DNA from: Methanomicrobia archaeon
GTDB taxonomy: Archaea; Methanobacteriota_B; Thermococci; Methanofastidiosales; NM3
Length of the DNA: 64,000 nucleotides
Direction: 5' to 3'
Assembly (NCBI GenBank): GCA_030603445.1
Contig: JAUVXU010000001.1
Span: 43,924 to 107,923, forward strand
Shown: piece after piece, positions 1,095 through 62,942 of the stretch
Position numbering within the stretch: position 1 is the first letter of the stretch
Layout of the letters: the number at the start of each line of letters is the position of its first letter
Made by a program: the position numbers and the translations under genes
Notes under the pieces: generated by a model
Databases searched by the model: none
What the model saw: the letters and a program-made list of their open reading frames with translations, nothing else
Told to the model about the DNA's origin: nothing

Positions 1095-2606
1095 GTGCAT
1101 TCTTTTCTTAATAATCTTGGAATAAAAAAGGAAAATTTAGGCGGTTGTTATGGTATAGACAACTGGGTGGGATATGGAGAGACCATTATATCTATTAATC
1201 CTGCAACAGGTGAACCTATTGCAAAAATAAGGCTAATTGATGAGGGAGAATATAACAACATAACCAAGAGCGCATGCTCTACTTTTAAGAAATGGCGCGA
1301 GCTTCCTGCACCAAAGCGAGGAGAAATAGTGCGTCAGATAGGAAATGCTCTTCGCAAGAAAAAAGAGGACCTTTCCAAGCTAGTATCACTTGAAACAGGA
1401 AAAATATACACAGAGGGGCAAGGCGAGGTCCAAGAAGCTATTGACATCTCTGATTTTGCTTGTGGTCTTTCCCGCCAACTCTATGGAAATACCATGCCAA
1501 GCGAGCGCCAATCACACCGGCTATATGAACAGTGGCATCCCTTAGGCAGCGTGGGAATAATTACGGCCTTCAACTTTCCTGTTGCAGTATGGGGATGGAA
1601 TGCTCTAATAGCATCGGTATGTGGTGATACCACAATATGGAAACCCTCCTCGAAAGTGCCCCTTTGCGCCATAGCAGTGCAGCATATAGTAAATGGCGTG
1701 CTTGCTGACAATGGATGGGAAACCGGGGTCTTTTGCCTTGCTTGCGGAGATGGAAAAACTGTGGGAAGTTGGATATCTAAAGACCCGCGCATACCGCTTG
1801 TTTCGGCAACTGGATCTGTTTCTATGGGCAAGAAAGTAGCAGAGAATGTTGCCAAGCGTTTGGGAAAAACCATCCTTGAGCTTGGGGGAAACAATGCAGT
1901 TATTGTAAGCGAACATGCAAATATGGACCTGACACTCCCCGCCATACTCTTTGGCGCCATTGGGACGGCAGGCCAAAGATGCACATCTTTACGAAGGGTG
2001 CTGGTGCATTCATCCCGCAAAGATGACCTCATAACGCGCCTCATAAAAGCATATTCATCAGTAGAGATAGGAGATCCACTTGACCCGGATGTTCGTATGG
2101 GCCCACTAATTGACGGTCGCGCAGTATCTGATATGATGATGGCGCTAGCCTCAGTTGAGGAACAGGGAGGTGCCATCATCTATGGAGGCAAGAGGCTGCG
2201 CGGAAATTTTGTAGAACCAGCAATAGTAGAGGTACCGGGAAATGTCCCAATCGTTTCCAAGGAGACTTTCGCACCCATTCTTTACATTATAGAGTACAGC
2301 GATTTTGATGAAGCAGTGCAACTCCAAAACGAGGTGCCTCAGGGGCTTTCAAGCGCAGCATTCACAACTAACTTAACAGAAGCAGAATATTTCCTATCAT
2401 GCAGTGGATCGGACTGCGGGATAGCAAACATCAATGTTAGCACCAGCGGTGCTGAGATAGGCGGGGCGTTTGGCGGAGAAAAAGAAACAGGAGGGGGCAG
2501 GGAAGCTGGTTCTGATGCCTGGAAAGCCTATATGCGGCGCCAGACCGTGACTATTAATTGGGGGAACAAAATGCCTCTCTCACAAGGGATCGACTTTTCT
2601 AAATAG
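1095..2606 (+). CDS. Aldehyde dehydrogenase, ALDH7/antiquitin-like (alpha-aminoadipic semialdehyde / piperideine-6-carboxylate dehydrogenase family)
   Basis: 503 aa with a GTG start. It carries ALDH hallmarks (ELGGNNA, GTAGQRCTS with the catalytic Cys, FAPILY, EVPQGLSSAAFT, SDCGIANINVSTSGAEIGGAFGGEKETGGGREAGSDAWKAYMRRQT). This is nearly collinear with vertebrate ALDH7A1 as I remember it. Confidence 0.85.
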   Translation: MHSFLNNLGIKKENLGGCYGIDNWVGYGETIISINPATGEPIAKIRLIDEGEYNNITKSACSTFKKWRELPAPKRGEIVRQIGNALRKKKEDLSKLVSLETGKIYTEGQGEVQEAIDISDFACGLSRQLYGNTMPSERQSHRLYEQWHPLGSVGIITAFNFPVAVWGWNALIASVCGDTTIWKPSSKVPLCAIAVQHIVNGVLADNGWETGVFCLACGDGKTVGSWISKDPRIPLVSATGSVSMGKKVAENVAKRLGKTILELGGNNAVIVSEHANMDLTLPAILFGAIGTAGQRCTSLRRVLVHSSRKDDLITRLIKAYSSVEIGDPLDPDVRMGPLIDGRAVSDMMMALASVEEQGGAIIYGGKRLRGNFVEPAIVEVPGNVPIVSKETFAPILYIIEYSDFDEAVQLQNEVPQGLSSAAFTTNLTEAEYFLSCSGSDCGIANINVSTSGAEIGGAFGGEKETGGGREAGSDAWKAYMRRQTVTINWGNKMPLSQGIDFSK

Positions 2607-3126
2607 GAAAATACTGTCCTTTTTCACCTTCGTCTTCTCCCATACCTCCACAATTCCCATAAGAGATGCCATTAGAAAGAAAATGGCTGGCCAGGTGCCA
2701 TGTATAAGCCACCACACAAGATACCCCGATATGACAACAAGTGCTACAACCAAGGGAATAGCAACATATAATGGAAGATATAATACTTTAATTTCTAACG
2801 AATGTATACGCATATTTCCCTCTTGTTAGGTCAACTTATTAAGTTTATTGTGGGTAGAAACGATAAGTTAAAAGAGCGAATGAAATAAAATCATTCTGGT
2901 TCAAGGTCCAGCAATAATATAAGGAGTGCTAGTATAACTGCAACTAGTGCCAAGATCCCCCTATCGTAGACATAGAGGATAAGGGCCGCAATAATAAACA
3001 GTATGGTGGATCTCGAGCCTACCTTCATGCCTGTATAAACCCACATACATTAAAAAAAGTATTGGTGGGTAAAGCAATAGAAAAAATTTTAAATGGAAGA
3101 AATGTTCTAAACTACTAAATAGCAAT

Positions 3127-3213
3127 GTCAGGGTGGCCCAGCCTGGTACGGCGCCGGCCTGCTAAGCCGGTTCTTGAAAGAGATCCGGGGTTCAAATCCC
3201 CGCCCTGACGCCA
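3127..3213 (+). tRNA. tRNA-Ser (anticodon GCT), class II with a long variable arm and encoded CCA
   Basis: Sequence GTCAGGGTGGCCCAGCCTGGTACGGCGCCGGCCTGCTAAGCCGGTTCTTGAAAGAGATCCGGGGTTCAAATCCCCGCCCTGACG+CCA. There is a 7-bp acceptor stem (GTCAGGG/CCCTGAC), a 5-bp anticodon stem (CCGGC/GCCGG) with loop CTGCTAA giving anticodon GCT, about 15 nt of extra arm, and a T-loop GGTTCAAATCC. Confidence 0.9.
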
Positions 3214-3307
3214 AATCTATTCTTGTTATGTTGCCCATACATTATTTGATGGATTTACGCATTTTTCCCCATATATTACGAAACCAAACACTTCATCCAA
3301 TACTTAG

Positions 3308-3332
3308 TTTGCAGTGGAAACGAAGGGGTATG
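3308..3332 (+). repeat. Isolated ORB-like element (TTTGCAGTGGAAACGAAGGGGTATG), near-identical to the ORB at oriC (28218–28245)
   Basis: It matches the oriC ORB at 28218–28245 at 18 of 19 core positions. It sits in a 430-bp AT-rich spacer about 95 bp downstream of tRNA-Ser. Confidence 0.6.
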
Positions 3333-3637
3333 AAATGATACTCTTCATTCCAATGAGCAGCTTCTTTTCCATGACATTATATGATATATTTATGCATAAA
3401 ATGCCATATCCAATTCGTGCCGTGAAAAACAAGGGATTAAATATAAATAATACCCTATAAAACTAAATCTATGGAACATGAAAAATTATTTATGGGGTGT
3501 GTTGCAGGCGGTATTATTTTAGGAATAATACCCTTTGGTTTTGAGTACAAGGCAATTGCCGTAGGTGTAGCAATAGGTTTGATTTTCTTTATGCAGATGA
3601 GAAATTATATTGACTGAAAAATTCTCCGATAGGTTGC

Positions 3638-4171
3638 CTATCTATCTGGAGGTCTTTTTCTTAGATATTTATTAAGCTCGCATCGCAGGTAGCTACGAGA
3701 AAACATCTCAAGCCCAAACTGGCTGTTTTGGGCCTCAAGTGGTGCCTCGAAACGAATAGAGTCTTTGTCAATTATATGTATACTGCCACCTTTTCCAATA
3801 GCAATGTTTAGTGGCCATTTCCCCATAAAGATACCATATCCAATTCCCCTTGACCGGAGTTCTTCTAATGTCGTATCAATTAATATGTTATTAGTAAGCG
3901 GAGTTATTATTACTATTCCCTTAGTGATACTGCTAGTTGGGTCAACGCAGCTTAAAAACTGCTCCAATTGCTCTTTACACTGTGCATTATAATCTATGTG
4001 CGTAAGATACTGTGCTTCTTTTGTTTCAATATATAACGAAAGGCAGGAAATGATGCTCGTTGTTTCTAGAAATTCTTCATCAGATGCTCTTTTACAAATG
4101 CAAGAGCGCTGAAATATCTTCTTCACATTCTCGGGCTCACGTATTAAAGTTACCAAGTAAATTACTCCCAT
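3638..4171 (-). CDS. Hypothetical protein (177 aa)
   Basis: ORF only; no recognisable motif. It overlaps the upstream ORF by 10 nt, as in an operon. Confidence 0.4.
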   Translation of the reverse strand: MGVIYLVTLIREPENVKKIFQRSCICKRASDEEFLETTSIISCLSLYIETKEAQYLTHIDYNAQCKEQLEQFLSCVDPTSSITKGIVIITPLTNNILIDTTLEELRSRGIGYGIFMGKWPLNIAIGKGGSIHIIDKDSIRFEAPLEAQNSQFGLEMFSRSYLRCELNKYLRKRPPDR

Positions 4172-4473: not shown

Positions 4474-4581
4474 AACAAATCATGTTTGATAAATAAAAAT
4501 CTAATGCGATAGAAGGCATTTGTTATATCTGCCGGTCTTGATCCTTTCATTATTTATGATAAGAAATAATAACTTTCTAGC

Positions 4582-6133: not shown

Positions 6134-7432
6134 ATGGCAAAAGAAAAACCACACTTAAATGTAGCATTTATTGGTCACGTTGACCACGGAAAGTCTACAA
6201 CTGTCGGACAGTTGCTGGTCCAACATGGTGACATTAGGGAAAATATAATCAAAAAGTTCGAGGATATGGGCGAGAAAGGTAAGACCTTTAAATTCGCATG
6301 GGTAATGGACAACCTCAAAGAAGAGCGTGAGCGGGGCGTGACAATCGACTTGGCTCATAAGAAGTTCGAGACAGATTCAAAGTACATCACGATCGTGGAC
6401 TGTCCAGGACACCGTGACTTCGTCAAGAATATGATCACTGGCGCCTCACAAGCTGATGCAGCCGTTCTTGTCGTTGACGCAAAAGACGGTGTAATGCCGC
6501 AGACGAAGGAACACGTCTTCTTGGCCAGAACGCTTGGTATCAAGCAACTCGCAGTTGCTGTAAACAAAATGGATGTAGTTGGCTACAAAGAAGAGAGGTA
6601 TAACGAGATAAAGGATTCTGTTTCAAAATTAATACGTGTTGTAGGCTTCAAGCCCGATGAGACACTATTTATTCCTATCTCCGCATTCGAAGGGGACAAT
6701 GTAACTAAATCTTCAGATAATCTATCCTGGTATAAGGGCAAGACTCTTCTTGATACCATAGACTCTTTCAAAGAGCCTTCAAAACCAGTTAACAAGCCCC
6801 TTAGGCTTCCGGTGCAGGATGTATTTACTATAACCGGCGTAGGGACCGTCCCTGTTGGCAGAGTGGAAACAGGCATAATGAAAATAGGGGACAAAGTGAT
6901 TTTTGAACCCGCATCAAACATCCTTGGTAAACCAGTAACTGGTGAAGTAAAGACTGTTGAGATGCATCATGTTACCTTAAAGCAAGCAGAGCCTGGGGAC
7001 AACATAGGATTTAACGTACGAGGCGTCGGAAAGAAGGACATCAGGAGAGGCGATGTTTTAGGACACGTTTCCAAACCACCAACGGTCGTAACACCAAAGG
7101 ACACATTCAGGGCGCAGATAGCCGTTCTCACCCACCCAACAGCCATCACCGCAGGATACACCCCGGTGTTCCATGCATATACTGCACAAGTAGCCTGCAC
7201 ATTCGAGGCACTTGTCGCAAAACTCGATAAGAAAACAGGCGGTATAGCTGAAGAGAATCCAAAATTCTTGAAGTCTGGCGACGCCGCAATCGTTGAGATA
7301 AGGCCAACAAAGCCAATGGTGATTGAGAACTACAAGGAACTCCCAGAAATGGGTCGATTTGCTATACGTGATATGGGTACAACAGTTGCTGCAGGTATGT
7401 GCATCGCTATTCACAAGGGTGGCAAGTACTAA
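6134..7432 (+). CDS. tuf: Translation elongation factor EF-1 alpha (aEF1A)
   Basis: The GTPase motifs are present ([24 protein letters not shown]), with the domain II/III conservation of archaeal EF-1alpha. There is a GGAGG Shine-Dalgarno 8 nt upstream. Confidence 0.97.
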
Positions 7433-10108: not shown

Positions 10109-11341
10109 ATGCCAACTGCCACCGTGCTAGAAAAATATGCAACATGCCTGATATGTGCTGATAAATCTGTATTTACTGGCATTTCCAAATCAAAGTGTGC
10201 CATTTGTAAAGGGCGTTTATTTTGTGGACAGTTCCCTTGTCCAATATTATCGTCCCTAACTGTAGAGTACATGTCGCAGCGCGATATAAAAACATCAATA
10301 GAAGGGACTGCATATGATATTGTTGCTGGTTGGGAACAGTTCCCAAACGAACCATTGGGTCTTGTTGTAACAGATAATGAAAAGGCGCCCTCAGAGAAGG
10401 ATGCTGCCACTCGAGAGATTCTAATAAGAAAACTGCAAACAACATACTGCCCGTTTACAAATGAACCAATTTCAAGCAAAAACATTGATATTATGCACGA
10501 TGTCGTAATTTCCAGCACCCCCGTACAAATAGAAGTCGAACTCGATACCTTGCCCATGCAATCGGTGGAATTTAGTGGCGTGGAAGAGCCAATAAGCAAC
10601 AAATGCATACTTGATAAGATTGAAGTTATTGGGAATCCTACGGTGCCAGCTTACATCAAAGATATAGTTAACTCTGATATGGGAACAGAACAATGCATCG
10701 CTACTGCATTCTCAAAAGGGGCGGACCCGGATTATATTACAAAACTTTTTTCGTGCGGATATCTTGGAATGTCCAGTAAATTTCTGCCAACACGATGGGC
10801 CAAGACAACTATGTATAATACATGTTCCAATCTGCTAATAAAAGATATAAAGCGCATGCCAGTTTTAGAAGAACCATGTGTTTATTACAATGAGTGCTAT
10901 GGCAACCCATATGCAATAGTTTTTTTGCCACGCTCATGGGAGTTCGAACTTATAGAGGTCTGGCAACCCAGCACCCTGTGGGCCTTTGGGGAAACTGAAC
11001 CAATAGTTGTGCATGAACACGAAACGTATAATGGAATCTCTGATCAGGCCATGAGGGGGGGCGGTTCTTATTATGCGAGCCGACTTGGTGTGGCCGAACT
11101 GCTAACTAAAATAAATAATCAAGCCGCAACTATCGTTATGAGGGGATCTAGCGCTTGCACTTCTGTGCCATTTGGCTCTGGTGAGATACGAACAGGTGTT
11201 GCAGAAGCGAAGTTATACAAGTGGTACGAGTCGCCTGAAGCGGCAGTAGATGCGGCATGCGCTCTTGTGGGTGCCCCTGAAAAGAAGATACGCTCATTGT
11301 CTACTATCATGGCCCAAGACACGCTAACACGATGGTTTTAG
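10109..11341 (+). CDS. NreA-like DNA-repair protein (COG1602-like) with an N-terminal Cys4 zinc finger and a C-terminal PIP box
   Basis: The N-terminus is CLICADKS…CAICKGRLFCGQFPCP. The extreme C-terminus is QDTLTRWF, which fits the PCNA-interacting consensus Qxx[LIM]xx[FYW][FYW]. The size (410 aa) and architecture fit archaeal Nre proteins. The family assignment is from memory. Confidence 0.5.
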   Translation: MPTATVLEKYATCLICADKSVFTGISKSKCAICKGRLFCGQFPCPILSSLTVEYMSQRDIKTSIEGTAYDIVAGWEQFPNEPLGLVVTDNEKAPSEKDAATREILIRKLQTTYCPFTNEPISSKNIDIMHDVVISSTPVQIEVELDTLPMQSVEFSGVEEPISNKCILDKIEVIGNPTVPAYIKDIVNSDMGTEQCIATAFSKGADPDYITKLFSCGYLGMSSKFLPTRWAKTTMYNTCSNLLIKDIKRMPVLEEPCVYYNECYGNPYAIVFLPRSWEFELIEVWQPSTLWAFGETEPIVVHEHETYNGISDQAMRGGGSYYASRLGVAELLTKINNQAATIVMRGSSACTSVPFGSGEIRTGVAEAKLYKWYESPEAAVDAACALVGAPEKKIRSLSTIMAQDTLTRWF

Positions 11342-11556
11342 CGTTTAGTTAAAATGCGTTTCTCCCTTTTTTATCTCCAGAAGAAGCTACTAAACCAGGG
11401 ATTCGCCTGCAACTTCGTGATAGAAAGTAAAATTTTTTAGAAGATTTTTTTGTCTCTTTTTCATTTTTTATGAAAATAGTTTAGGGAAAAATTAATTTAC
11501 TTCCAAATTGATTTTTATATAGATTTAATCAAATTTCACTTTAACGCCCGAATGAA

Positions 11557-11587
11557 CTGTTAAACGAATAGAAAATTCGTTTAACAG
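11557..11587. repeat. Perfect 13-bp inverted repeat with a 5-nt loop (CTGTTAAACGAAT-AGAAA-ATTCGTTTAACAG)
   Basis: The hairpin or operator-like palindrome is read directly from the sequence. It lies in the AT-rich region just upstream of the APH-family gene. Confidence 0.7.
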
Positions 11588-12525
11588 TGGTTAGGCAAAA
11601 TTTGAAAAAACAAACACTTTTAAATAATGATAATTATGGCAATTTTATGAAAGCGGAATTCTTTTTACAACAGATTAAAAATGAGTTTCCACAAGTAGAG
11701 TGGAAAAAATATCGTATACTTACACATGGTTGGGATCATGTAGTTATTGTTTTTGATGAAAAACTCATTTTTCGCTTCCCAAAAGATAAGGAGTATAAAG
11801 AAGAATTCAAAAATGAAATACAACTACTTAGTTATCTGAAAAAAAGAATAAAAGTTGGTATCCCAGAATATACTTATGTATCTAAAGATAAATCACTTGC
11901 TGGATATGAAATGTCGAATGGTCGAGAGCTTAAATCTTCTCACTTCAAACGTTTTACAGGCTCGGAAAAAGAACTGTTTGCTAAACAAATGGCTGATTTT
12001 CTTACAAATCTACATGCAACACCAAACTCAGCCATTTCAAAATTCAATATAAGTGTCAATAATCCAAAAAAAGACTATAACGAACTAGTTAGCAATACAG
12101 AGAAATTTCTTTTCCCTCGCATCAATAAAAAAGAAGTTTCGGTAATTGAAAAATATTTAGATGAATTAAAAGTCACTCTCGATCATAGCAACTATCCAAA
12201 TGTGCTAACACATAATGATTTAACTTGGGAGCATATTCTTTGGAATAAAGATAATAATAAAGTAAATATTATTGATTTTAGCGACCGCACATTTGGAGAT
12301 CCAGCAATTGATTTCGCAGGTTTATGGGAGTATGGACAAATATTCGTCAATAGAGTTTATGGCTTGTATAAAGGCAAAAAAGATGACCAACTTTTACATA
12401 GATCACAATTGTATTTCAAAAGAATCCCGCTTTTTATAATGAAAGATGCTCTTGATGGTTATCCATGTACTTTTAAAGAGGGATATGAAATGTTTAAGAA
12501 AAGGTATAAAATTGCTAAAATTTAA
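11587..12525 (+). CDS. Aminoglycoside/antibiotic phosphotransferase (APH)-family small-molecule kinase
   Basis: The catalytic loop is HNDLTWEHIL (the HGD-type Brenner motif) and the Mg-binding motif is IIDFSD. The N-lobe is Lys-rich. The gene is AT-rich and bacterial-like. The start is either GTG at 11587 or ATG at 11647. Confidence 0.75.
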   Translation: MVRQNLKKQTLLNNDNYGNFMKAEFFLQQIKNEFPQVEWKKYRILTHGWDHVVIVFDEKLIFRFPKDKEYKEEFKNEIQLLSYLKKRIKVGIPEYTYVSKDKSLAGYEMSNGRELKSSHFKRFTGSEKELFAKQMADFLTNLHATPNSAISKFNISVNNPKKDYNELVSNTEKFLFPRINKKEVSVIEKYLDELKVTLDHSNYPNVLTHNDLTWEHILWNKDNNKVNIIDFSDRTFGDPAIDFAGLWEYGQIFVNRVYGLYKGKKDDQLLHRSQLYFKRIPLFIMKDALDGYPCTFKEGYEMFKKRYKIAKI

Positions 12526-12695
12526 TAGGGATGTATTTATTTTTTCAAACTCAAGGGGGCGTTGCACTTCACTCTCCCATATTTTGCTCCACTGCGTTCC
12601 GCAAAACATTGCATATACTGAAACGTTATATGAAATTCAGGATTCCGCCTTTAAAGGCAATAAAATTTATAAAATTACATAATTAAGTTAATAAT

Positions 12696-13130
12696 ATGGT
12701 CTACAAACATACGCAAATTGGATATCTAATAATTATCGCATTAATTATTCCATTATTGATATTATTTTTTGTTATGACCATTGCTGAATTTATCAAAATT
12801 TTACCAATTACATTTTCCATTTTATTAATAGCTTTGGCATTATTTCACTCATTAACAGTAGAAATAGATAAAACAAGACTTGTTATTAAGTTTGGTTTGG
12901 GAGTTATAAATAAAAAATTTATTTTAAAAGATATTGAATCGTGCCATGCTGTGAAAAATTCTTGGTATTATGGTTGGGGAATTAGGAGAACCCCTCATGG
13001 TTGGTTGTATAATATTTCTGGTTTATCAGCCGTTGAGATACAGATGAAAAATGGTAAAAAATATAGAATAGGCACGGATGAACCTAAAAGCTTGGAACAC
13101 GCAATTACACAAACAATTAAACAAACCTAA
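12696..13130 (+). CDS. Membrane protein with a C-terminal bacterial-PH-like domain
   Basis: Two N-terminal TM helices, then …WYYGWGIRRTPHGWLYNISG…VEIQMKNGKKYRIGTDEP…, which resembles bPH/YdbT-type domains. Confidence 0.5.
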   Translation: MVYKHTQIGYLIIIALIIPLLILFFVMTIAEFIKILPITFSILLIALALFHSLTVEIDKTRLVIKFGLGVINKKFILKDIESCHAVKNSWYYGWGIRRTPHGWLYNISGLSAVEIQMKNGKKYRIGTDEPKSLEHAITQTIKQT

Positions 13131-13272
13131 CAAACAACGGAACCCTTAACTCAAGCCACGTTGCACCCTATCTGGGTTTGGCCTTCAAAACATTCTGCTT
13201 CGCCTAACGCCGCATGACCAAAAAACGTTATATAACCTTCTGCCAAGACCTAATCGATAGGGGGGCTTAAAC

Positions 13273-13479
13273 ATGGATGGAACCATTCGAAATAATATTA
13301 CCCAAGGGTTACGTGTTGCAATCGTGTTAAAAAGGGATCAAAAAACCGGAAAGCTTACAACAGGTGTTGTTCAAAACATACTAACGAAGTCCAAAACACA
13401 TCCTCATGGAATTAAAGTTCGCCTTAAAAGCGGCGAAATCGGCAGAGTAAAAGAAATTTTATGTGATACCACGTCTTAA
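13273..13479 (+). CDS. YwbE-like small conserved protein (DUF2196 family)
   Basis: 68 aa with …RVAIVLKRDQKTGKLTTGVVQNILT…HGIKVRLKSGEIGRVKEI, typical of the Bacillus YwbE family. Confidence 0.55.
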   Translation: MDGTIRNNITQGLRVAIVLKRDQKTGKLTTGVVQNILTKSKTHPHGIKVRLKSGEIGRVKEILCDTTS

Positions 13480-13486
13480 AAGAAAA

Positions 13487-18540: not shown

Positions 18541-19779
18541 TTAGCTTAGTCTTTCATTAATGGTTTTTAAGTTATAAAGAATAATTAATTGAAGCACTTG
18601 ATTTAAGCTATTATCATTTCTTTTTTTTGCACCTTTTGTTGAATCAAGATATTGTTCTAGAAGCCCTAAGGGAATATCAAAAATAGGGACACCTTGGGTC
18701 CTTAACAAATGAAACGTGATTAATCTTGTTGTCCTGCTGTTTCCATCTTCAAAAGGATGAATCTGCTGAAACTCATTATGAAAATATGCTACAAAGTCAA
18801 GAATTTTTGTTAATGTGTTTTTCTTTACTCTAAACTCATTATATTTTTTTATTAAAATATTTAGTTTAGGTTCTATTTCTTCGACTTTTGCAACTTTAAA
18901 ATAAGGTTTGCCTTTTATATAAACAGGAAGATCCCTTATTTTTCCTGCAATATCATCTCTATGTTGCATTGCCAAATAATGATAACTAGTTATAGCATTT
19001 TTTGTAAGTGGCATGTTGTTTAATGCATCCTGAAGCATTTTTTGCATAGCTTTCTGATAATTTTTTACTTCTTCAATACTTTCAACACTTAAATTTTTAG
19101 GAACAATATAATCTCTGAGAAGTTTAATTGTGTCTGGAAGGGTGATGGGGTTTCCTTCAAGAGTTAAACTATGATGAATAAAACTTATTTCAAACTCATC
19201 TATGATTTTTCTATAAACTATAGCATTTCTATCTTTTAACCTATTAAATTTTTTCAGTTCTCTTTCAATTTCACTGAAATATTCATTTTCTTTGTGTTTT
19301 ACAACCAATACTTTATGACTGAAATATGCAACTAAATTTTTTAGAAACGAATTATAAGGTATAATACCTATCAAGGGCTTTCTAGATATGATTATTAATA
19401 AGCCATTTTTTGCAAGAATATTTACATACTTTGAATACGTTCTTGGATGAATGTCAAAATCATTTATACCAAAATTCTTCTTTAAAAATCCCTTACTAAT
19501 AAATGCAGTAATATTCTCATCTAATAGCTCATTATAATTAATTTTGTTTGATACACAAAATTGAATCATCTGATACAAGAGATCATTTTTTTTGTTTCTT
19601 ATAACTTCAAACCCATGTTCCGACTTAGAAACCTGCTTCATTTCAGCCAGATCTGTCATTAACCTGTAAATGAATTTATAGTCCTTATCCAGCTTTTTAA
19701 AATAAGTGGCAACTTCTTTTGGTTGTATGATGCTGCCCTTGGAATACATAAACTCAAAAACATCGTATTTTGTTACCAT
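18541..19779 (-). CDS. Fic-family protein (putative AMPylator), 412 aa
   Basis: The Fic motif is HPFEDGNSRTTRL, a variant of HPFx[DE]GNGRxxR with a Gly-to-Ser change. An upstream inhibitory-helix-like SLTLEGN ([ST]xxxE[GN]) is present. There is an extra ~190-aa N-terminal region. Confidence 0.8.
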   Translation of the reverse strand: MVTKYDVFEFMYSKGSIIQPKEVATYFKKLDKDYKFIYRLMTDLAEMKQVSKSEHGFEVIRNKKNDLLYQMIQFCVSNKINYNELLDENITAFISKGFLKKNFGINDFDIHPRTYSKYVNILAKNGLLIIISRKPLIGIIPYNSFLKNLVAYFSHKVLVVKHKENEYFSEIERELKKFNRLKDRNAIVYRKIIDEFEISFIHHSLTLEGNPITLPDTIKLLRDYIVPKNLSVESIEEVKNYQKAMQKMLQDALNNMPLTKNAITSYHYLAMQHRDDIAGKIRDLPVYIKGKPYFKVAKVEEIEPKLNILIKKYNEFRVKKNTLTKILDFVAYFHNEFQQIHPFEDGNSRTTRLITFHLLRTQGVPIFDIPLGLLEQYLDSTKGAKKRNDNSLNQVLQLIILYNLKTINERLS

Positions 19780-55909: not shown

Positions 55910-57030
55910 AAGTAATGGTATTTCGAAAATATTATGCTCTGATAGTAGTGGTTGTTATATTTGGGGCTTTATTATTTAGCTTTAATATACAAAGATATTT
56001 TGCCCCCCTCTCTTCTTTTGAAGATCCCTTGCAACAGGACAATGATTATTTTTCTATAGGGAAATATCCCTTTGGTTATAATGGGGCATGCATGGTTACT
56101 GTCGATGATGTTTCTTTTTGGACTTTGACAGAAGAGTTGCAATCATTACGAGAAATCACGCGATTGCATGGCGTGCATGCAACATATTTTGTTATACCGG
56201 CGCATGGTGGAGCAGCATATCCCATTTCAAATAACATGGAAGTAGTGGAATTACTGCTTAAATGCATGGGAGAGGGAGATGAAGTGGCCCTACACGGATA
56301 CACACATTCCCCCACCACCGAGCTTAAAGGAAAATCCAGGGCAGATCAAGAAGAGATAATACGCAAAGGATTAGCGGAACTGACAAATATATTTGGCCCA
56401 GTATATGGTTTTAGGCCGCCTGCATTTTGGAAAAATACAGCCACATATTCTGTGCTTGAGGAACTGGAGTTTTTGTACTGTGCATCTGCTTGTGTGTTTA
56501 ATGTGAATCCTTACCATCCTTTTGACACATTCTCTCCTTTCTTTGGAGAGGAGATCAACCTTATTGAGATCCCTTGTTTCCCTACCGATTATCTGGCAAA
56601 CATAACATCCGAGAACTCTTCTGAACAACTATTCAAACTCAAAACGCGTTTTGATGGCTGTTATGAAAAAGGTGCGCCATTTGTGTTTTTTTCACATTTG
56701 GAGACTCTTTTATATATTGATAAATCTTCGGGACGCTATGAGGGATTAAGTGCTCTTGATAATTTCCTTAGTTATACACACTCGCTAAATATGTGGATGC
56801 CCACTATGTTAGAATATGCAAAATGGCAGATTTTTTTAGAAGACATTAAAATAAGCTATAATATCTCTTCAAATAAGATTAATATTTCAATGATGTCGGA
56901 TGATGTCATTGATGGCATTACAATATATATGAATCTCCCCGATGACATCAATGATGTTACAATATCTTTTAATAACGTAGTTTGTTACAAATGCGATACA
57001 TGCTCCAAGAACGAGATTATTATTCTCTAA
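55906..57030 (+). CDS. Membrane-anchored polysaccharide deacetylase-like (CE4/DUF2334-like) protein
   Basis: An N-terminal TM is followed by TVDDV (a TFDDG-like motif) and ALHGYTHSP (an H-x-x-x-H-like motif). Confidence 0.45.
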   Translation: MKVMVFRKYYALIVVVVIFGALLFSFNIQRYFAPLSSFEDPLQQDNDYFSIGKYPFGYNGACMVTVDDVSFWTLTEELQSLREITRLHGVHATYFVIPAHGGAAYPISNNMEVVELLLKCMGEGDEVALHGYTHSPTTELKGKSRADQEEIIRKGLAELTNIFGPVYGFRPPAFWKNTATYSVLEELEFLYCASACVFNVNPYHPFDTFSPFFGEEINLIEIPCFPTDYLANITSENSSEQLFKLKTRFDGCYEKGAPFVFFSHLETLLYIDKSSGRYEGLSALDNFLSYTHSLNMWMPTMLEYAKWQIFLEDIKISYNISSNKINISMMSDDVIDGITIYMNLPDDINDVTISFNNVVCYKCDTCSKNEIIIL

Positions 57031-58268
57031 TAATATACTATTTTTTCTTTTATGTGTTCTATGGCCAAATGACCTTTGTATATTTTTTTCTCCGCTTTCT
57101 TGAGGTAAGTTCCCATGCCTCTTCCATTCTTGATAATATCTTCAATGAGGTCATTAACATCACAATACTTCCGTTTTCGAAATGAATATAGTTTTCCTTT
57201 TTCGACATAAGTTTTGGGATTGACGTGTTTAAATTTTGATACATTATCGTAGTTATCTATTGGGGGGCCAACATGTTTTTTAAATTCAGGAAGAGATTTT
57301 ATCTCAACGTCAATTGCCACTCCTCTTTCATAAACCCCATGTTTATATATGGAAAATCCATAATGTTCACACTCTTGAACAGTAGACTCTACGAACCTCC
57401 TAGCTTGGGCATAGAATGTAGATTCATGTACGTCTGTATAAAGATCTATTAATATTAATAATCCACTATCTACAGAGTCATATCCTTTTTTAGGGCCAAT
57501 AAACATCGTGTTGTCCTTTGTCTCTTCATAGGTGTGGCAGGCATCCATAAATAAGGAGAAAGAATTAAGAGATACAGCAGAGGCAACATTGCGTTTTGGG
57601 TCTACAGGGTCCACAACAATCAATGGGTCAGAGAATTCCTTTACTGGGTCTATGAAATTTATTTGGGTGCCTATTTTCCATTTTGTTGCATTAGCAACTA
57701 AATTGATAAACGTTCTATAGTGTATTATTAATAATTCACAAAGATATCCAGAAAATCCATTTGTCCTTGAATCTGCACCATATATTTTCTGTGCTTTTAA
57801 GAATCGTTTGAGTAATCTAACTTCATCCCTTTGCTCAGGCTTTAAATTAGCTAAGACATATTCCAAGTGAAAAGGCGTTCTATCAACAGCAGAAATAATC
57901 TCGGGCGCTGTTTGCACGTTGTAGCATGGAACTAATTCAACAGAGAATTTATCGACAATTCCCGATACGTAAGGATGTTCAGCATAGGATATTTTATATT
58001 GAATTCCAAGATGTCTGAATACAGATTTACCTATTTCAATGCCTTCTTTTACTAATATTCTTATCGGCGTATTAGGTGGGAAAAAAATGAAAATGTCCAG
58101 ATCTTTATCATTTTTTAGAAAAGTGTCTTTTGCTACCGATCCAACTAAAATTGATTCTTTGCCATAATCAGATTTTATATAGGAATATATTTTTTTATAT
58201 ATCTCGATGGCATTATCCTTTTCTTCATCGGAGGGTCGGATATTGTTTTTTATAGTATCTAGGTTCAT
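57027..58268 (-). CDS. cca: CCA-adding enzyme (archaeal class I tRNA nucleotidyltransferase)
   Basis: The nucleotidyltransferase motif is GSVAKDTFL…DLDIFIFF. The size and architecture match archaeal CCA enzymes. Confidence 0.88.
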   Translation of the reverse strand: MNLDTIKNNIRPSDEEKDNAIEIYKKIYSYIKSDYGKESILVGSVAKDTFLKNDKDLDIFIFFPPNTPIRILVKEGIEIGKSVFRHLGIQYKISYAEHPYVSGIVDKFSVELVPCYNVQTAPEIISAVDRTPFHLEYVLANLKPEQRDEVRLLKRFLKAQKIYGADSRTNGFSGYLCELLIIHYRTFINLVANATKWKIGTQINFIDPVKEFSDPLIVVDPVDPKRNVASAVSLNSFSLFMDACHTYEETKDNTMFIGPKKGYDSVDSGLLILIDLYTDVHESTFYAQARRFVESTVQECEHYGFSIYKHGVYERGVAIDVEIKSLPEFKKHVGPPIDNYDNVSKFKHVNPKTYVEKGKLYSFRKRKYCDVNDLIEDIIKNGRGMGTYLKKAEKKIYKGHLAIEHIKEKIVYY

Positions 58269-58816
58269 AGCTTAAACACCTTTTCATCGGAATACATTGG
58301 TCCATTTGGCGTGAGAACACTTTTTTTCAAATAAATTTTATTTACTTTGTCTTTACCAAGAACAGTATCTTTTAATGACACAATGATATCATTGGTCTTT
58401 TGTTTATTATAAACTTCCTTAACACGCGCAATCGTGATGTGAGGCGAAAATGGCCTTGTTTCCTTAGCAATACCTATTGTAGCAAAATTTGTATCTATAT
58501 TCTTGGATAATTCAAGCATACGGGGGCTGCTACAGCCCACCCATATTATTTTTGGATTTCGCGAATTCGGAAATGCACCAACTTTTTTATAATCAATTTC
58601 AAATTGGGATATATCATTGCATGATTTATTTATAGCTTCAATGATGTCGTTGATGTCATCGTAAGGTTTTTCTCCAATGAATTTCAACGTTATATGCATA
58701 TTATTTTTGGTTGTAAATTTGGCTCGTAAAATAGAATCAGGAAAGTTATACTTCATTTTTTTTATCTTTTCTTTTATTTCATCTGATAATTCTATTGAAA
58801 CAAAGAGGCGTGTCAT
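58265..58816 (-). CDS. thpR: RNA 2',3'-cyclic phosphodiesterase / 2'-5' RNA ligase (2H phosphoesterase, ThpR/LigT)
   Basis: There are two H-x-T/S-x motifs (HITLKF and HITIAR). The start is trimmed to MTRLFVSIEL, giving a 4-nt overlap with the upstream stop. Confidence 0.85.
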   Translation of the reverse strand: MTRLFVSIELSDEIKEKIKKMKYNFPDSILRAKFTTKNNMHITLKFIGEKPYDDINDIIEAINKSCNDISQFEIDYKKVGAFPNSRNPKIIWVGCSSPRMLELSKNIDTNFATIGIAKETRPFSPHITIARVKEVYNKQKTNDIIVSLKDTVLGKDKVNKIYLKKSVLTPNGPMYSDEKVFKL

Positions 58817-59289
58817 CTTATAACTCCATTTCCTCTTGATATTGGTATTTTTTCCCAAGGAAATATTATCCATTTGTCAGTTTCAAATACATAATAATCT
58901 GGATCTATAATACTATGTGATTTTTTTGCTATAACGGCTATTCTTATTTCTTTGGCGTTTTTATTACTCAAATGTTCTTTAATTGCCATAAGGGTTTTAC
59001 CAGTATCAGCGACATCATCAACAATTAAAACGTTTAAATTATCTATTTTATCGGTCAAAGGAACCATAATATTGGGTTTTTCTCTTCTTTTTTCTACATC
59101 TTTATAAAATTTTACATCAACAACCCTCATAAGAATATTATTTGAGATATGAGATAATCTTACGGCAGGAATAAGTCCTCCTCTTGCTACACCTACAATC
59201 ATGTCTGGCGTGAAGTCTTTTAGAATTTCATCTTTTAGAGTCCACACTGCTTCATCAATTTTTATCCAATCTAAATATTCTTTGTTCAT
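58813..59289 (-). CDS. gpt: Xanthine-guanine phosphoribosyltransferase-like purine PRTase
   Basis: Collinear with bacterial Gpt: VARGGLIP, the PRPP motif VLIVDDVADTGKT, and C-terminal DYYVFE…WIIFPWE. Confidence 0.8.
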   Translation of the reverse strand: MNKEYLDWIKIDEAVWTLKDEILKDFTPDMIVGVARGGLIPAVRLSHISNNILMRVVDVKFYKDVEKRREKPNIMVPLTDKIDNLNVLIVDDVADTGKTLMAIKEHLSNKNAKEIRIAVIAKKSHSIIDPDYYVFETDKWIIFPWEKIPISRGNGVIR

Positions 59290-59371
59290 ATCTATATCAC
59301 AAAATTACTCTAGTTTTCATTATATAAATATTGTCATAGCAAGGTTTATATATATTTTTAAGTTATACTAT

Positions 59372-59391
59372 GTCAAGTAAAATGACTTGAC
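59372..59391. promoter_or_regulatory. Palindromic operator-like element GTCAAGT-AAAATG-ACTTGAC at the start of the downstream HTH gene
   Basis: A 7-bp inverted repeat with a 6-nt spacer ends 12 nt before the ATG at 59404. Confidence 0.5.
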
Positions 59392-59403
59392 TTGGTGTTT
59401 GTT

Positions 59404-59805
59404 ATGAAATACTCTTTCAATTATGTGGAAAAATGGATAGATACAGATTATTTTGCTAATAAATTATTAGATATGAGTTATTTTACTAAAATTCAATTAA
59501 AAGATTACGTTTCTTACGTTTGGAACAAAGAATATGGAGATAATGTTACATATATCGAGTTAGCAAACAATAGAAATGTATCAAAACAGGCGATTTCTGA
59601 TAATATACGCCTTGCAAAAGATAATATTGACAAAGCAATCTCAACTTTTATTTTAGGTATTTACGCTAATCTCATCCCGTTGGAATCTATTGAAATATAT
59701 ACAGAATTTTTAGAGCTTTTGAAGGAAGCAAAAGAAAGCGAAAGTGAACGAGACTTTCAAAAAATGAGAAAAAGAATGATAAATGTTTTGGATGAATTAT
59801 TGTGA
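59404..59805 (+). CDS. Small HTH protein (133 aa), hypothetical regulator
   Basis: An HTH-like segment is present (TYIELANNRNVSKQAISDNIRLAKDNI). The sequence is AT-rich. Confidence 0.45.
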   Translation: MKYSFNYVEKWIDTDYFANKLLDMSYFTKIQLKDYVSYVWNKEYGDNVTYIELANNRNVSKQAISDNIRLAKDNIDKAISTFILGIYANLIPLESIEIYTEFLELLKEAKESESERDFQKMRKRMINVLDELL

Positions 59806-59808
59806 TAT

Positions 59809-59844
59809 CAATGATGTCATAATGATGTTATTGATGTCATCGAT
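59809..59844. repeat. Tandem short direct repeats CAATGATGTCAT / AATGATGTTAT / TGATGTCAT(CGAT) between two convergent genes
   Basis: Three consecutive copies of an AATGATGTYAT motif are read directly from the sequence. Confidence 0.7.
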
Positions 59845-59845
59845 A

Positions 59846-60457
59846 TTATAACTTGTTATAAATATATTCTTTCCCTTTTCGTTTTCTTGAGAGATATCCT
59901 TTTTTGTGCAGTGCTTTAAGTATTCTTGATATATGCCCTTTGGACATCTTTGTTTCTTCTACGATCATATCTGTGGTAATATTCGTTGAATACTTACTGA
60001 GTATTTCTTCTTCGAATTCTGTTAGTGTTTCCTCGTTTTGAATTATTTCTTTTTTAGAAACTATTGGTCTTTTATTTAAGGCGAAATCTATAAATTTTTC
60101 AGTTATTTTATTTTGGGACTCTTTTATGTCTTTTATTTCGTTTTGAACCATTTCTATTTCTTTTTTTGTTAAATTTAATTCATCTTTATATACAACTTTT
60201 AACATTTCATTATCCGTTTCCATTATTTTCTCTGCCAATTTATTTAGTTTGAATTCGTGTTTATCGCTTACTGTGTTAATATCTTTTAATTCCAGTTTTA
60301 TATCTTGTATCTCAGAAAATATGGTTCTTACGTCTGTTTTAAAGATTTGAAAGTCTTGGATATTTTGTTCTTCTAGCGTTGTCTTTATTATTTCAAGTTC
60401 TTTTTCTATTTTATTGTCTTCTTTCTTTTTTAATCCCAACAATGATAATAATCCCAT
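59846..60457 (-). CDS. Coiled-coil protein with a C-terminal winged-helix DNA-binding domain
   Basis: The N-terminal ~150 aa are heptad-rich (EKELEIIKTTLEEQ…). The C-terminus is a wHTH (TDMIVEETKMSKGHISRILKALHKKGYLSRKRKGKEYIY). Confidence 0.55.
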   Translation of the reverse strand: MGLLSLLGLKKKEDNKIEKELEIIKTTLEEQNIQDFQIFKTDVRTIFSEIQDIKLELKDINTVSDKHEFKLNKLAEKIMETDNEMLKVVYKDELNLTKKEIEMVQNEIKDIKESQNKITEKFIDFALNKRPIVSKKEIIQNEETLTEFEEEILSKYSTNITTDMIVEETKMSKGHISRILKALHKKGYLSRKRKGKEYIYNKL

Positions 60458-60491
60458 GAGTAAATAATTAATATTTTCCTATATATATCTT

Positions 60492-60618
60492 TCGATGATG
60501 TCATTGAAACTAGCATAATATTTGATATTTTTTTAATTAAAATGATATTTTTTAATTAAAACAATTCAATGATATCAATGATGTAATTTAATATTATTTA
60601 ACATCAATGATGTTATCG
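60492..60618. repeat. Cluster of AATGATGTYAT-family motifs (CGATGATGTCAT, CAATGATATCAATGATGTAAT, CAATGATGTTAT) upstream of the coiled-coil wHTH gene, extending into the rpiA 3' end
   Basis: At least four copies lie within 130 bp. The motif is the same as in the 59809–59844 repeats. Confidence 0.65.
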
Positions 60619-61259
60619 TGTGCGATTATTATTTTGCATGGTCGTGTGAATATACCATTTTCTACTACGCCGGGTATATTGTTTAATTTTTGTTCTAATG
60701 TTGGTGGGTCATTAATCATAATCTTTAGATCTATTATGAAGTTTCCATTATCTGAGATCACAGGCCCGTCTTTAGCTTTTGCTTCTCTTAGTATTGGTTT
60801 TCCTATTTTTTCTAATTTATTCATAACGGTGGTTAAGCTCATGGGTATAATTTCTATTGGGAGTGCAAAATTCGTTCCTAGTGTGGCAACGAGTTTTGAC
60901 TTATCAATAAGCACGTAGAATTCCTTTGCTGCATAATCTACGATTTTTTCTTGTGTTAGAGCTCCACCCCTCCCTTTTATTAGATGATTATGTGGATTGA
61001 CCTCATCTGCCCCATCAAATGCTACTTCTGGTAGGTGCTCTGGTAAACTTGTGATTCGTAGGTTATTTTCTATGCATAAATTATATGATTGGTAAGAGGT
61101 AGGTATAGCATAAAATTCCTCCCCTTGTTCTATGCGTTTTCTTAGAGCTTTAGCATAGAGTGCTATAGTACTGCCCGTACCTAACCCAATTACTTGCCCT
61201 TCTTTTGTTAAGTTTGCAGCATAATCAGCAACTTTCTGTTTCTGTTGTATTATATTCAT
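60594..61259 (-). CDS. rpiA: Ribose-5-phosphate isomerase A
   Basis: GLGTGST…, DGADEV…, KGRGGALTQEK are the RpiA signature segments. Confidence 0.9.
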   Translation of the reverse strand: MNIIQQKQKVADYAANLTKEGQVIGLGTGSTIALYAKALRKRIEQGEEFYAIPTSYQSYNLCIENNLRITSLPEHLPEVAFDGADEVNPHNHLIKGRGGALTQEKIVDYAAKEFYVLIDKSKLVATLGTNFALPIEIIPMSLTTVMNKLEKIGKPILREAKAKDGPVISDNGNFIIDLKIMINDPPTLEQKLNNIPGVVENGIFTRPCKIIIAHDNIIDVK

Positions 61260-61300
61260 ATTGGTAAAAACATTTTTATTATTTTTATATATATCTTATA

Positions 61301-62932
61301 TTGATGCAACATATACGATATTTTTCATTGATATTTATTTTTTTATTGTTTTTTGAATCATTCTCTTTTTGTGCATCTCTTGAATCGAATGAAAATGTAG
61401 ATTTAGCTTTGGATAGTGGAAAAATTGTAGTTTTATATTTTTGGCAATCTGATTGTTCTTCATGTGGTAGCGTAGATGTTTCTATGACATCTATAGAAAC
61501 AATGTATGGCGATAGTATTGTTCTTTTCAGGCTTAATTTAGATCAAGGGGAAATTGTGTTAGAAACACGTTATTCTGTCAGCGTTACCCCAACTGTTGTT
61601 ATTTTTGATAGTTTAGGTAGAATTTTTGATACTTTGGCGGGTGCTAAAACCTTATCTTATTACATTGATCGCATTGATGCAGCATTTGCTGCAGAGGGGG
61701 GATTTAGAGATGAGGCCAATAAATATTATGACAATGCTTTACTCTTTTTTAATATTGAAAAGTATTCCAATGCAAAACAGTACTTTACGAAGGCACGTGA
61801 ATTGTATTCAAAAATAGGCGATGTTACTAAGACCATATTATGTGACCAGTTTATTCAGAAATCCGATAAATATATGGATGCAGCATTATATTTGGAACAG
61901 GCCGATGATAATTTTTTGGAAGAAGATTACCTACTTGCTAAATCTAATTATAATGTTGCTTTATCTTATTATTTGAATTTAAACGATTTAGATAAGATGG
62001 ATTATTGTAGTTTACAAATTGATAAATGTGATTTGTATCCCTCTCTTGAAGAGAATATGATTATTGCACAAAGGTATGTGTATGAACATAAATATGCATC
62101 TGCAAAAGTAGCTTTAATAGAAATTCGCAATGGATATGAGCAGTTAGGTGAGACAGAGAAAGTTGTTGAAATAGAAAATACTATCAAATTATGTAGCGAC
62201 TATATCTTAGCAAACCAATATTTTTCAGATGCGACTGTAGCAATTAATAACAAAAATTACGAAGTTGCAATTTCTAATTTTAATGAAGCAAAAAATATCT
62301 ATATTTCTTATGGCGACGAGGAAAAAATAATGTTATGTGACCAAAACATTGCTATTGCAAATCAATTATTGGAATTGCAGGTATCAATTACGCCCCCCCC
62401 TGCTGGTTTAGGAACGGATTACAGTAAGTATTATCCTTATGTGGCATTCATAGTATTTTGTGTATTAATTATAGGCGGAATAATAATATATTATACTAAA
62501 AGAAAAAAGAATAAATCTGGTGTTTCATCTTCTTCAAAAGTCCCTGCAATTGACAGAATATCTAAACAGTTGGATATTTCTTTTGATAAAAATACAATTG
62601 AAGAAGCAGAAATTCTAAGCGAAGAGGAGGATAAAGAACCGTCTTTTATACCCGAGGACCCGTTTAATTCTTATAAAAGTACTACTATTGAAGCAAAAAA
62701 TGAGCTTCTTTCTAACTTTTTACAGTGGGCAGAAGAGCTTGTTAAAGAACTCGATAATGCAAATTCAAAGGATTATTTTATATATCGTGACAAATTGGAT
62801 CAATTGTATTCTTTTTTCACACGTTCTTTTAGCTCGGATGAAGCATATCTTGACAAAGACCTACTTTCCTTGGTAAATGAACGCATTCATATTTGTCAAA
62901 CAAAGCTTACTGACTTGATAGACATAATATGA
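61301..62932 (+). CDS. Secreted/membrane-anchored TPR-like repeat protein with a C-terminal TM and acidic cytoplasmic tail
   Basis: It has a signal peptide and repeated ~34-aa Tyr/Ala/Asn-rich helical hairpins (…ANKYYDNALLFFNIEKYSNAKQYFTKARELYSK…). The TM is YVAFIVFCVLIIGGIIIYY. Confidence 0.5.
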   Translation: MMQHIRYFSLIFIFLLFFESFSFCASLESNENVDLALDSGKIVVLYFWQSDCSSCGSVDVSMTSIETMYGDSIVLFRLNLDQGEIVLETRYSVSVTPTVVIFDSLGRIFDTLAGAKTLSYYIDRIDAAFAAEGGFRDEANKYYDNALLFFNIEKYSNAKQYFTKARELYSKIGDVTKTILCDQFIQKSDKYMDAALYLEQADDNFLEEDYLLAKSNYNVALSYYLNLNDLDKMDYCSLQIDKCDLYPSLEENMIIAQRYVYEHKYASAKVALIEIRNGYEQLGETEKVVEIENTIKLCSDYILANQYFSDATVAINNKNYEVAISNFNEAKNIYISYGDEEKIMLCDQNIAIANQLLELQVSITPPPAGLGTDYSKYYPYVAFIVFCVLIIGGIIIYYTKRKKNKSGVSSSSKVPAIDRISKQLDISFDKNTIEEAEILSEEEDKEPSFIPEDPFNSYKSTTIEAKNELLSNFLQWAEELVKELDNANSKDYFIYRDKLDQLYSFFTRSFSSDEAYLDKDLLSLVNERIHICQTKLTDLIDII

Positions 62933-62942
62933 GGCCATAATA

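Follow-up and report, generated by a model that had tools for sequence, protein, structure and literature searches.

The 64,000-nt stretch of archaeal DNA analysed here (the window) carries, between the core genes Nre and YwbE, two genes that five related contigs lack, and we consider it likely that they arrived together as a fragment of a foreign integron cassette array. The fragment would comprise a gene cassette for an APH-family small-molecule kinase and, behind it, the gene of a small membrane protein with a PH-like domain, with, ahead of both, a perfect hairpin that would be the remnant of the recombination site that came before the kinase cassette. The parts of the window that are described below between 11342 and 13479 are on the plus strand, the hairpin alone having no strand assigned.

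The extent of the insertion is set by comparison with an empty site. Archaeal genes flank the island (Nre, an HTH-ThiN protein, a Na+/H+ exchanger and an Mrp/NUBPL ATPase), the Nre protein shares a 90%-identity cluster with a protein from a Candidatus Methanofastidiosia metagenome-assembled genome (MAG), and the host of the window is a Methanofastidiosia archaeon. The representative of that cluster led to five Nre-encoding relatives (L007-L011), a prior Nre scan of genome contigs having given none; these related Methanofastidiosia contigs, four from Joint Genome Institute (JGI) metagenomes and one from GCA_054798795.1, are near-identical to one another and collinear with the window across ~20 kb. 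The gene order in all five is Nre, the 68-residue DUF2196 (YwbE) gene and the Na+/H+ exchanger, with neither the kinase gene nor the 144-codon open reading frame (ORF) of the membrane protein. Because native homology, at ~89-90% nucleotide identity, breaks at 11538 and resumes at 13174, and because the two genes are absent from the relatives, the comparison shows an insertion of ~1.6 kb, running from 11539 to ~13173 and holding two genes, between the core genes Nre and YwbE.

On the left, positions 11342-11538 belong to the native Nre-YwbE spacer and not to the island; they are 89% identical to the five relatives over 11301-11538, and the homology ends with ...AATCAAATTTCA. The edge of the foreign DNA (11539-11555), absent from the relatives, includes the R''-like CTTTAAC (11539-11545) followed by GCCCGAAT (11546-11553). 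On the right, homology to L018, a contig that carries the membrane-protein gene, ends at 13157, which is also where the L018 contig ends, and homology to L007 starts at 13174; the junction is located somewhere within this zone (13157-13174, CACGTTGCACCCTATCTG), around CACGTTGCAC. Between these points 66 nt of spacer in L007 (11429-11494) are without counterpart in the window, and the native spacer missing at the insertion amounts to 52-66 nt. Direct repeats at the island ends, which a preceding sequence-only reading of the region had proposed to look for, were not seen, so that there is no sign of a target-site duplication flanking the island.

That reading had described three genes as horizontally acquired cargo. 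The description fits the kinase gene and the membrane-protein gene, both absent at this locus in the five relatives and sharing 83-87% DNA identity with the copies that unrelated bacteria and DPANN archaea carry, but it does not fit YwbE. The native DNA that resumes at 13174 runs through the YwbE/DUF2196 gene (13273-13479) and is 90% identical to L007-L011 over 13174-13479; the gene, present in five of the five relatives, is native and syntenic together with its upstream 100 nt, and its best matches are archaeal, which is the very outcome that had been named beforehand as speaking against transfer. The family assignment itself was right: the 68-residue product matches TIGR03833 at 107.7 bits against a cutoff of 63.4 and PF09962 with E = 7e-29, and its nearest relatives are from Methanofastidiosia (93%) and then from anaerobic methanotrophic archaea (ANME) and Methanosarcinaceae (~81%).

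It is scarcely credible that no acquisition took place in this lineage, the genes being ancestral and lost from the relatives, or the contig being a chimera. The near-identity of the five relatives means that only two lineages are compared and that polarity is unproven by phylogeny, and the source is a MAG contig; yet the two flanks, on a single contig, are each collinear with the relatives, such that a chimera would need two precise false joins, and the relatives keep the 66 nt of spacer with no remnant of an insert. The inserted genes, moreover, have integron boundaries and 83-87% DNA identity to copies in Bacteroidota, in bacteria of the candidate phyla radiation (CPR) and in DPANN archaea, and whichever lineage changed, they were foreign at some point.

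Those boundaries were compared for the kinase gene in the window, in L002-5, in L006/L023 (Cyclobacteriaceae, Bacteroidota), in L019/L025 (Woesearchaeota), in L020 and in L024 (Campbellbacteria). The cassette (11591-12625, TTAGGC...AAACG) has 83-86% nucleotide identity to L001, L002-5 and L006, contigs that differ widely in their make-up, and its leader pattern recurs in L023, L024 and L025, all three of which were found by scanning for that pattern. In six unrelated contexts homology starts exactly at G|TTAGGC, that is, within the integron core site GTTAGGC (11590-11596; GTTRRRY), with the junction between G11590 and T11591; the preceding base is always G and the upstream sequence is otherwise unrelated. 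At the 3' end homology stops at AAACG|TT, with TTATAT in the window, TTAAGT in L019 and TTGTTA in L024, and the downstream sequences differ. The kinase unit has at its 5' end both the GTTRRRY core and the G|TT crossover, and these alignments show its junctions to be canonical integron junctions. L002 is a true array in which three successive co-oriented ORFs are each followed by an attC, the kinase gene being the third.

The leader scan placed the cassette in a Cyclobacteriaceae chromosome, a Campbellbacteria contig and a Woesearchaeota contig, the kinase protein of L019 being 85% identical to that of the window. The closest homologues of the kinase (72-85% amino-acid identity) are all metagenomic, and more distant ones (55-64%) come from Elizabethkingia, CPR bacteria, Bathyarchaeia, Methanofastidiosia and Theionarchaea. 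The families had been described as typical of Firmicutes, but an origin in Firmicutes is not seen: none of the three families has its closest relatives there, and the kinase copies sit in Cyclobacteriaceae, Campbellbacteria and Woesearchaeota. Cross-domain movement is supported because the same cassette, with identical boundaries, is found in Bacteroidota, CPR bacteria, DPANN archaea and a methanogen-related archaeon, and the spread of one cassette across domains is shown by this distribution. A scan of viral contigs for the cassette leader gave one chance match only, a blastn search of phages gave nothing, and the plasmid collection held only distant APH genes (under 30% identity).

Several of the other contexts have features of their own. 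In L024 the kinase gene has a premature stop at codon 9 (oriented ~4480-4506) and an intact attC, a decay opposite to that of the window. In L002 an insertion sequence (IS; DDE_Tnp_1 with DUF4372, 2560-3750) occupies the place where the R' box of the kinase-cassette attC is expected, which suggests that this element targets attC. In the Cyclobacteriaceae copies the kinase region is flanked by 63-nt hairpin repeats (ACAAAAC...GTTTTRT; L023 3607-3669 and 4998-5061, L006 4210-4272), each followed by an ORF starting MFDFERLEV. In L019/L025 the cassette stands next to genes for ValRS and RNase HI, and ~260 nt upstream of it the opposite strand carries an apparent tRNA gene (CGGGAGTCGAACCCGG...); this location is another non-integron chromosomal site. 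L001, a marine SusD-bearing (Bacteroidota-like) contig that also has a phage tape-measure gene, carries on its minus strand (7128-7337) the C-terminal remainder of a tyrosine recombinase gene, interrupted by a stop and sharing 53% identity with residues 259-328 of IntI1; this fragment, which starts 2.6 kb upstream of the kinase gene and is divergent from it, is not assignable to IntI, its N-terminal part being missing.

The attC of the kinase cassette is complete elsewhere and cut in the window. In L019 it reads GCCTAAC, ACAGTATATGCGG, variable loop, CGCATATACT, AAAC, GTTAAGT, and thus has the full set of R'' (RYYYAAC), L'', L' and R' in an imperfect hairpin; the bottom strands of this site and of the attC upstream of the kinase gene in L002 fold canonically, as R-box/bulge/L-stem hairpins, and L024 has the same boxes, GCCTAAC...GTTGTTA, as judged by sequence comparison only. 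The window copy (12560-12631) is ~90% identical to L019 in what remains of it, namely the scar CGTTGCACTT (12560-12569), the variable-loop hairpin TTTTGC...GCAAAA (12582-12606), L' (12607-12624) and R' (GTTATAT, 12625-12631), and it is without the R'' and L'' that a full 3' attC has. Its alignment to L019 contains a single 73-nt gap, between two CGTTGCACTT repeats, by which GCCTAAC-ACAGTATATGCGG (R''/L'') is lost, and this shows that the window attC was truncated by a 73-nt deletion between those repeats; in the proposed history this left half would have been lost after the fragment had arrived. As a result of the truncation the kinase cassette is joined to the downstream gene. DNA folding gave no signal for the window copy, and the spacer between the kinase and membrane-protein genes has none because the attC is truncated. 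Two spacers of ~90 nt had been considered as full attCs, 12545-12640 and 13150-13245; neither folds (z ~0), the first being the truncated attC and the second mostly native. In one of the relatives, L010, the native Nre-YwbE spacer has a 76-nt deletion between direct repeats ACTTCCAA (L010 11380-11420 compared with L007 11380-11500), and this spacer is apparently prone to repeat-mediated deletion, like that which cut the attC.

At the other end of the cassette stands the hairpin, ACTGTTAAACGAAT-AGAAA-ATTCGTTTAACAGT (11556-11588), with arms at 11556-11569 and 11575-11588 and a 5-nt loop. The sequence-only reading had placed a perfect 13-bp inverted repeat at 11557-11587; the location was correct, but the stem is one pair longer, 14+14 bp. 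As DNA it folds at -15 kcal/mol (z = -5.9), it is the sole perfect hairpin with a stem of at least 13 bp in the 64 kb, and a 14-bp one arose in 0 of 100 block shuffles. A second perfect hairpin, of 12 bp, is found at 60531-60561. The hairpin is within the foreign DNA, with 17 nt separating it from the left junction and a single base separating it from GTTAGGC. When the segment 11546-11596 is read as an attC, an R' core, GTTRRRY, is present at its 3' end one base past the stem; folding predicts an outer pairing of GCC..AAT with GTT.GGC, GCCCGAAT being the sequence that pairs with this part of the core site in DNA folds.

Other copies of the cassette have different sequences at this position. 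L002 and L006/L023 have there an attC-like inverted repeat of 85-100 nt, and the right arm of the window hairpin (ATTCGTTTAACAGTG) resembles the L' (CTTCGTATATCCCTGAC) of the canonical attC upstream of the kinase gene in L002. In L024 the place is taken by a perfect palindrome of 34 nt, AGTTATTATACGAAATATATTTCGTATAATAACT, after which comes G|GTTAGGCA, the same continuation that the window has. Compared outward from the loop, the arms of the window and L024 palindromes are equal at 9 of 14 positions, and the remaining 5 differ on both arms, such that pairing stays perfect. We incline, by a little, to the view that the hairpin is an atypical or degenerate site derived from an attC.

It had earlier been suggested that the hairpin could be an operator or a transcript-processing element, one that controls the kinase gene, and we regard this as very improbable. 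Its perfect dyad symmetry is typical of dimeric repressor sites, and downstream of it the ATG follows at 59 nt and a TATA-like box, TTTTAAATA (11618-11626, ~25 nt before the ATG), at ~30 nt; given that box, however, the hairpin would be upstream of the transcript. It abuts GTTAGGC and came with the foreign DNA, no regulator gene arrived with the insertion, Rfam gave no match, and where the cassette occurs elsewhere the corresponding place holds a canonical attC or a sequence without relation to the hairpin. The CPR counterpart, differing at 5 of 14 arm positions and still a perfect palindrome, points to structure and not to a sequence-specific protein shared across two domains.

We regard it as likewise very improbable that the hairpin is the end of another mobile element, of the IS200/IS605, palindrome-associated or rolling-circle type, that brought the genes. 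Subterminal hairpins are a recognition feature of such elements, and the hairpin is 17 nt away from the left junction. But there is a single hairpin, with no match at the right end, and no transposase or TnpB in or near the insertion, where an IS200/IS605-type element would show hairpins at both ends and a Y1 transposase or TnpB; the boundary conserved over six contexts is the integron core site and not the hairpin, and L002 has the same gene in a regular attC array.

It is tempting to speculate about a palindrome that abuts G|TTAGGC in two such different hosts. Both in the CPR bacterium and in this archaeon the palindrome and the kinase cassette stand between core genes with no integrase nearby, and it is conceivable, if decidedly unlikely, that the palindrome is no product of decay alone but a distinct minimal recombination site, or a signature of single-stranded cassettes settling in integron-less genomes; one example would be a hairpin-templated 'quasi-palindrome correction' during replication of an integrase intermediate. 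If true, this could mean that the cassette spreads among CPR, DPANN and methanogen-related hosts without an integron platform.

Returning to the reading that we prefer, an attC-derived remnant, the PH-domain gene stands where the next cassette of an array would sit. This second foreign module (12626-13166, absent from the relatives) is made up of a leader, the gene and a short 3' flank. Homologues of the gene at the DNA level were found in L012-17, L018 and L026-29, and the module is 92.6% identical in nucleotides to L018 over 12634-13157 and 84-87% identical to L012-17 and L026-29 over the ORF. The named relatives of the protein come from Aenigmarchaeota, Atribacteria, Dehalococcoidia, Nitrospirae and Anaerolineae. 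The gene (12696-13130) encodes 144 residues with two transmembrane helices at the N-terminus and then a PH-like beta-sandwich that has a C-terminal helix as its cap. The earlier description of a bPH-domain membrane protein therefore holds for the architecture but not for the sequence family, as neither Pfam nor NCBIfam gave any match even at E <= 10. The motif AACTCAAG-N3/4-CGTTGCAC is found after both foreign genes (12548-12567 and 13148-13166) and, together with AAACGTTATAT (12621 and 13223), makes up two diverged ~85-nt direct repeats that bracket the PH-domain gene.

In the history that we propose, an array fragment of ~1.6 kb would have entered the Nre-YwbE spacer and replaced ~52-66 nt of native DNA. 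It would have brought an attC-like hairpin ending G|TTAGGC, a complete kinase cassette and the PH-domain gene, and the hairpin is most likely to be what is left of the site of recombination that stood ahead of this cassette in the array of the donor. Sites of this kind act as folded single strands that are recognised by an integron integrase. With its partner site truncated and no integrase in the vicinity, the hairpin is probably inert in this genome and the cassette immobilised.

Several observations weigh against this reading. Canonical R'' (RYYYAAC) is missing from the hairpin; the candidates are CTTTAAC, which has a mismatch at R and lies 10 nt from the stem, and GCCCGAAT with bulged pairing, and L024 is without any R''. 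The stem is perfect, with no extrahelical bases, and the site, at 46-51 nt, falls below the usual length of attCs, which is roughly 55-140 nt. For the PH-domain gene none of the contexts covered shows an attC that could be recognised as its own, and in other genomes its homology is confined to the ORF. The foreign/native junctions are not clean G|TT junctions, the left one being TTTCA|CTTTAAC, and native spacer is missing. A tblastn search with IntI1 as the query found no integrase-like sequence in the 64 kb. By synonymous divergence (dS) the nearest copy is that of Woesearchaeota, at 0.52, and because this is ~0.5 the direct donor is not among the known copies. Finally, our own rule-based attC scanner was abandoned as a test: strict rules gave 2 matches in the window against 2.9 expected from shuffles, and relaxed rules gave ~1 match per kb everywhere, signal not being separated from noise.

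How the fragment came to lie in the spacer is perhaps best approached from the native side. Upstream of YwbE there is a native element (window 13190-13233; L007 ~11520-11565; TTCGCCAAACGTCGCATAACCACAAAACATTATAT in the relatives) that bears a weak likeness to the L'-R' half of the kinase-type attC (z ~4.5; 0 of 500 shuffles) and does not fold like an attC (z ~ -0.7). An older cassette event could have left it behind, or the likeness could be a coincidence with a promoter made up of a B recognition element (BRE) and TATA box. Because the whole of this L'-R'-like segment is on the right-hand side of the insert, a clean insertion by an integrase at a resident site is excluded. We infer either illegitimate or microhomology-based recombination of DNA that had been taken up, which we favour, or the action of an integrase in trans followed by deletions.

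The latter course, in which an integron integrase supplied in trans would have inserted a circular two-cassette molecule at an attC-like or secondary GTT site in the spacer, with later deletions blurring the junctions, seems to us unlikely. It would account for the weak resemblance of the native element to the kinase attC and for the similarity at the right junction zone between ACGTG|TTGCGC in the native spacer and CACG|TTGCAC in the window; the order of the genes, with the newest upstream and the older one behind them, is that of integron arrays, and Methanofastidiosum genomes have been reported to contain clusters of attC sites lacking integron integrases (CALINs). However, with the L'-R'-like segment so placed its G|TT was not the crossover point, the left junction does not coincide with a G|TT, the native DNA is short of 52-66 nt, the native element does not fold as an attC would, and no integrase was found in the 64 kb.

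Base composition had first drawn attention to the region as more AT-rich than its flanks, and so it is: the G+C content (GC) of the 1-kb windows 11001-12000 and 12001-13000 is 0.359 and 0.297, with ~0.40 on either side, the inserted block 11539-13173 has a GC of 0.306, and GC at third codon positions (GC3) is 0.225 for the kinase gene and 0.228 for the membrane-protein ORF against 0.35-0.47 for neighbouring core genes. Of the two compositional checks that had been proposed, windowed GC thus showed the expected drop but codon usage, as log-likelihood against core genes, was uninformative because the genome is itself heterogeneous. In this genome a low GC is no marker of foreign DNA, since housekeeping genes at 57-61 kb (for the CCA-adding enzyme, LigT, RpiA and a phosphoribosyltransferase) have a GC of 0.27-0.36, and composition is weak as evidence for foreignness. 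The whole of 57000-63000 is a long AT-rich stretch (GC 0.27-0.33) with housekeeping genes. A Fic-domain gene (18541-19779) has a GC of 0.28, as low as the island, and is in the same place in five of the five relatives; it was either acquired at an earlier time or is an AT-rich gene and nothing more.

The kinase gene (11647-12525) encodes 292 residues, and an identical protein is already on record (P0001). The motifs first seen in its translation, HNDLTWEHIL and IIDFSD, are indeed there, the catalytic HNDLTWEH and IIDFSD of an APH kinase domain among them, and Pfam places the protein in the APH family (PF01636, E = 8.4e-19). It belongs to the APH(2'')/Mph/capreomycin-kinase clade, at a score far below the cutoff of any named resistance enzyme: the best NCBIfam match, APH(2'')-IIIa, gives 86 bits against a curated cutoff of 625. 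The kinase is intact and its family, with a dN/dS of 0.12-0.18, is under purifying selection; its substrate would be an aminoglycoside- or macrolide-like small molecule. The TTTTAAATA box may be an archaeal TATA box from which the gene, with its own AT-rich leader, could be expressed as a leaderless mRNA. Aminoglycoside kinases work as resistance markers in methanogens, and for this reason a selective benefit of the kinase to its host is plausible.

Among known enzymes the closest comparison is with the APH(2'')/Mph phosphotransferases, such as APH(2'')-IIIa (PDB 3tdv, matched with E = 5.5e-24) and APH(2'')-IVa, with which the window kinase shares the APH fold and the HNDxxxxH and IDFxD motifs; unlike them it has only ~27% identity to the plasmid APH(2'') genes, and it was not found on the plasmids and phages of the searched collections. 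The hairpin is like a canonical attC (59-base element) in lying directly 5' of GTTRRRY with the crossover at G|TT, in the partial pairing of its outer boxes, and in its inner stem and short loop, and short canonical attCs do exist, for example attC-aadA7. It differs in having no RYYYAAC, no extrahelical bases and no stem imperfections, and in its length. Cassette fusions, and cassettes immobilised through the loss or truncation of their attC, are known in integrons, and the window kinase cassette, its attC without R''/L'' and joined to the downstream gene, is of this kind, but it lies in an archaeal chromosome outside any integron platform. Integron cassettes are reportedly also inserted at non-classical genomic (attG or secondary) sites, work of 2024 that is attributed to Loot et al. 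The cassettes of the window, L024 and L019/L025 are similar in standing in a chromosome outside an integron; in contrast, the junctions in the window are not at GTT and native sequence has been lost.

The most pertinent comparison is with the archaeal cassettes themselves. Integrons and CALINs have been described in 75 archaeal MAGs, a bacterial integrase has been found to recombine archaeal attCs, and cross-domain transfer of cassettes has been proposed (Ghaly et al., 2022; Sci Adv, PMC9668308). In that study an integron is defined by an intI with the IntI-specific domain and a CALIN by at least 2 attCs <4 kb apart, and Methanofastidiosum GCA_001587715.1 is listed with three CALINs (16 attCs), one cassette of which is annotated 'Phosphotransferase enzyme family' (Data S1/S3 of PMC9668308). 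The window locus comes from the same archaeal order and similarly has no integrase nearby, small co-oriented cassette ORFs and a phosphotransferase cassette. It differs in having only two genes, with a truncated attC and, at a distance of 1 kb, an atypical hairpin, and may miss the two-attC criterion of IntegronFinder; it differs also in being inserted between conserved core genes at a site whose empty form is known from relatives. The phenomenon is therefore one already described, of which the window locus is a further, decayed example. What is added here is the empty-site comparison, cassette boundaries defined to the base and shared over at least two archaeal and two bacterial phyla, the truncation of the attC, and a perfect-palindrome site in two hosts. 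The locus offers a clean before-and-after view of cross-domain cassette transfer, in support of the earlier proposal (Ghaly et al., 2022), and a route by which a cassette may become fixed, its attC cut by a repeat-mediated deletion.

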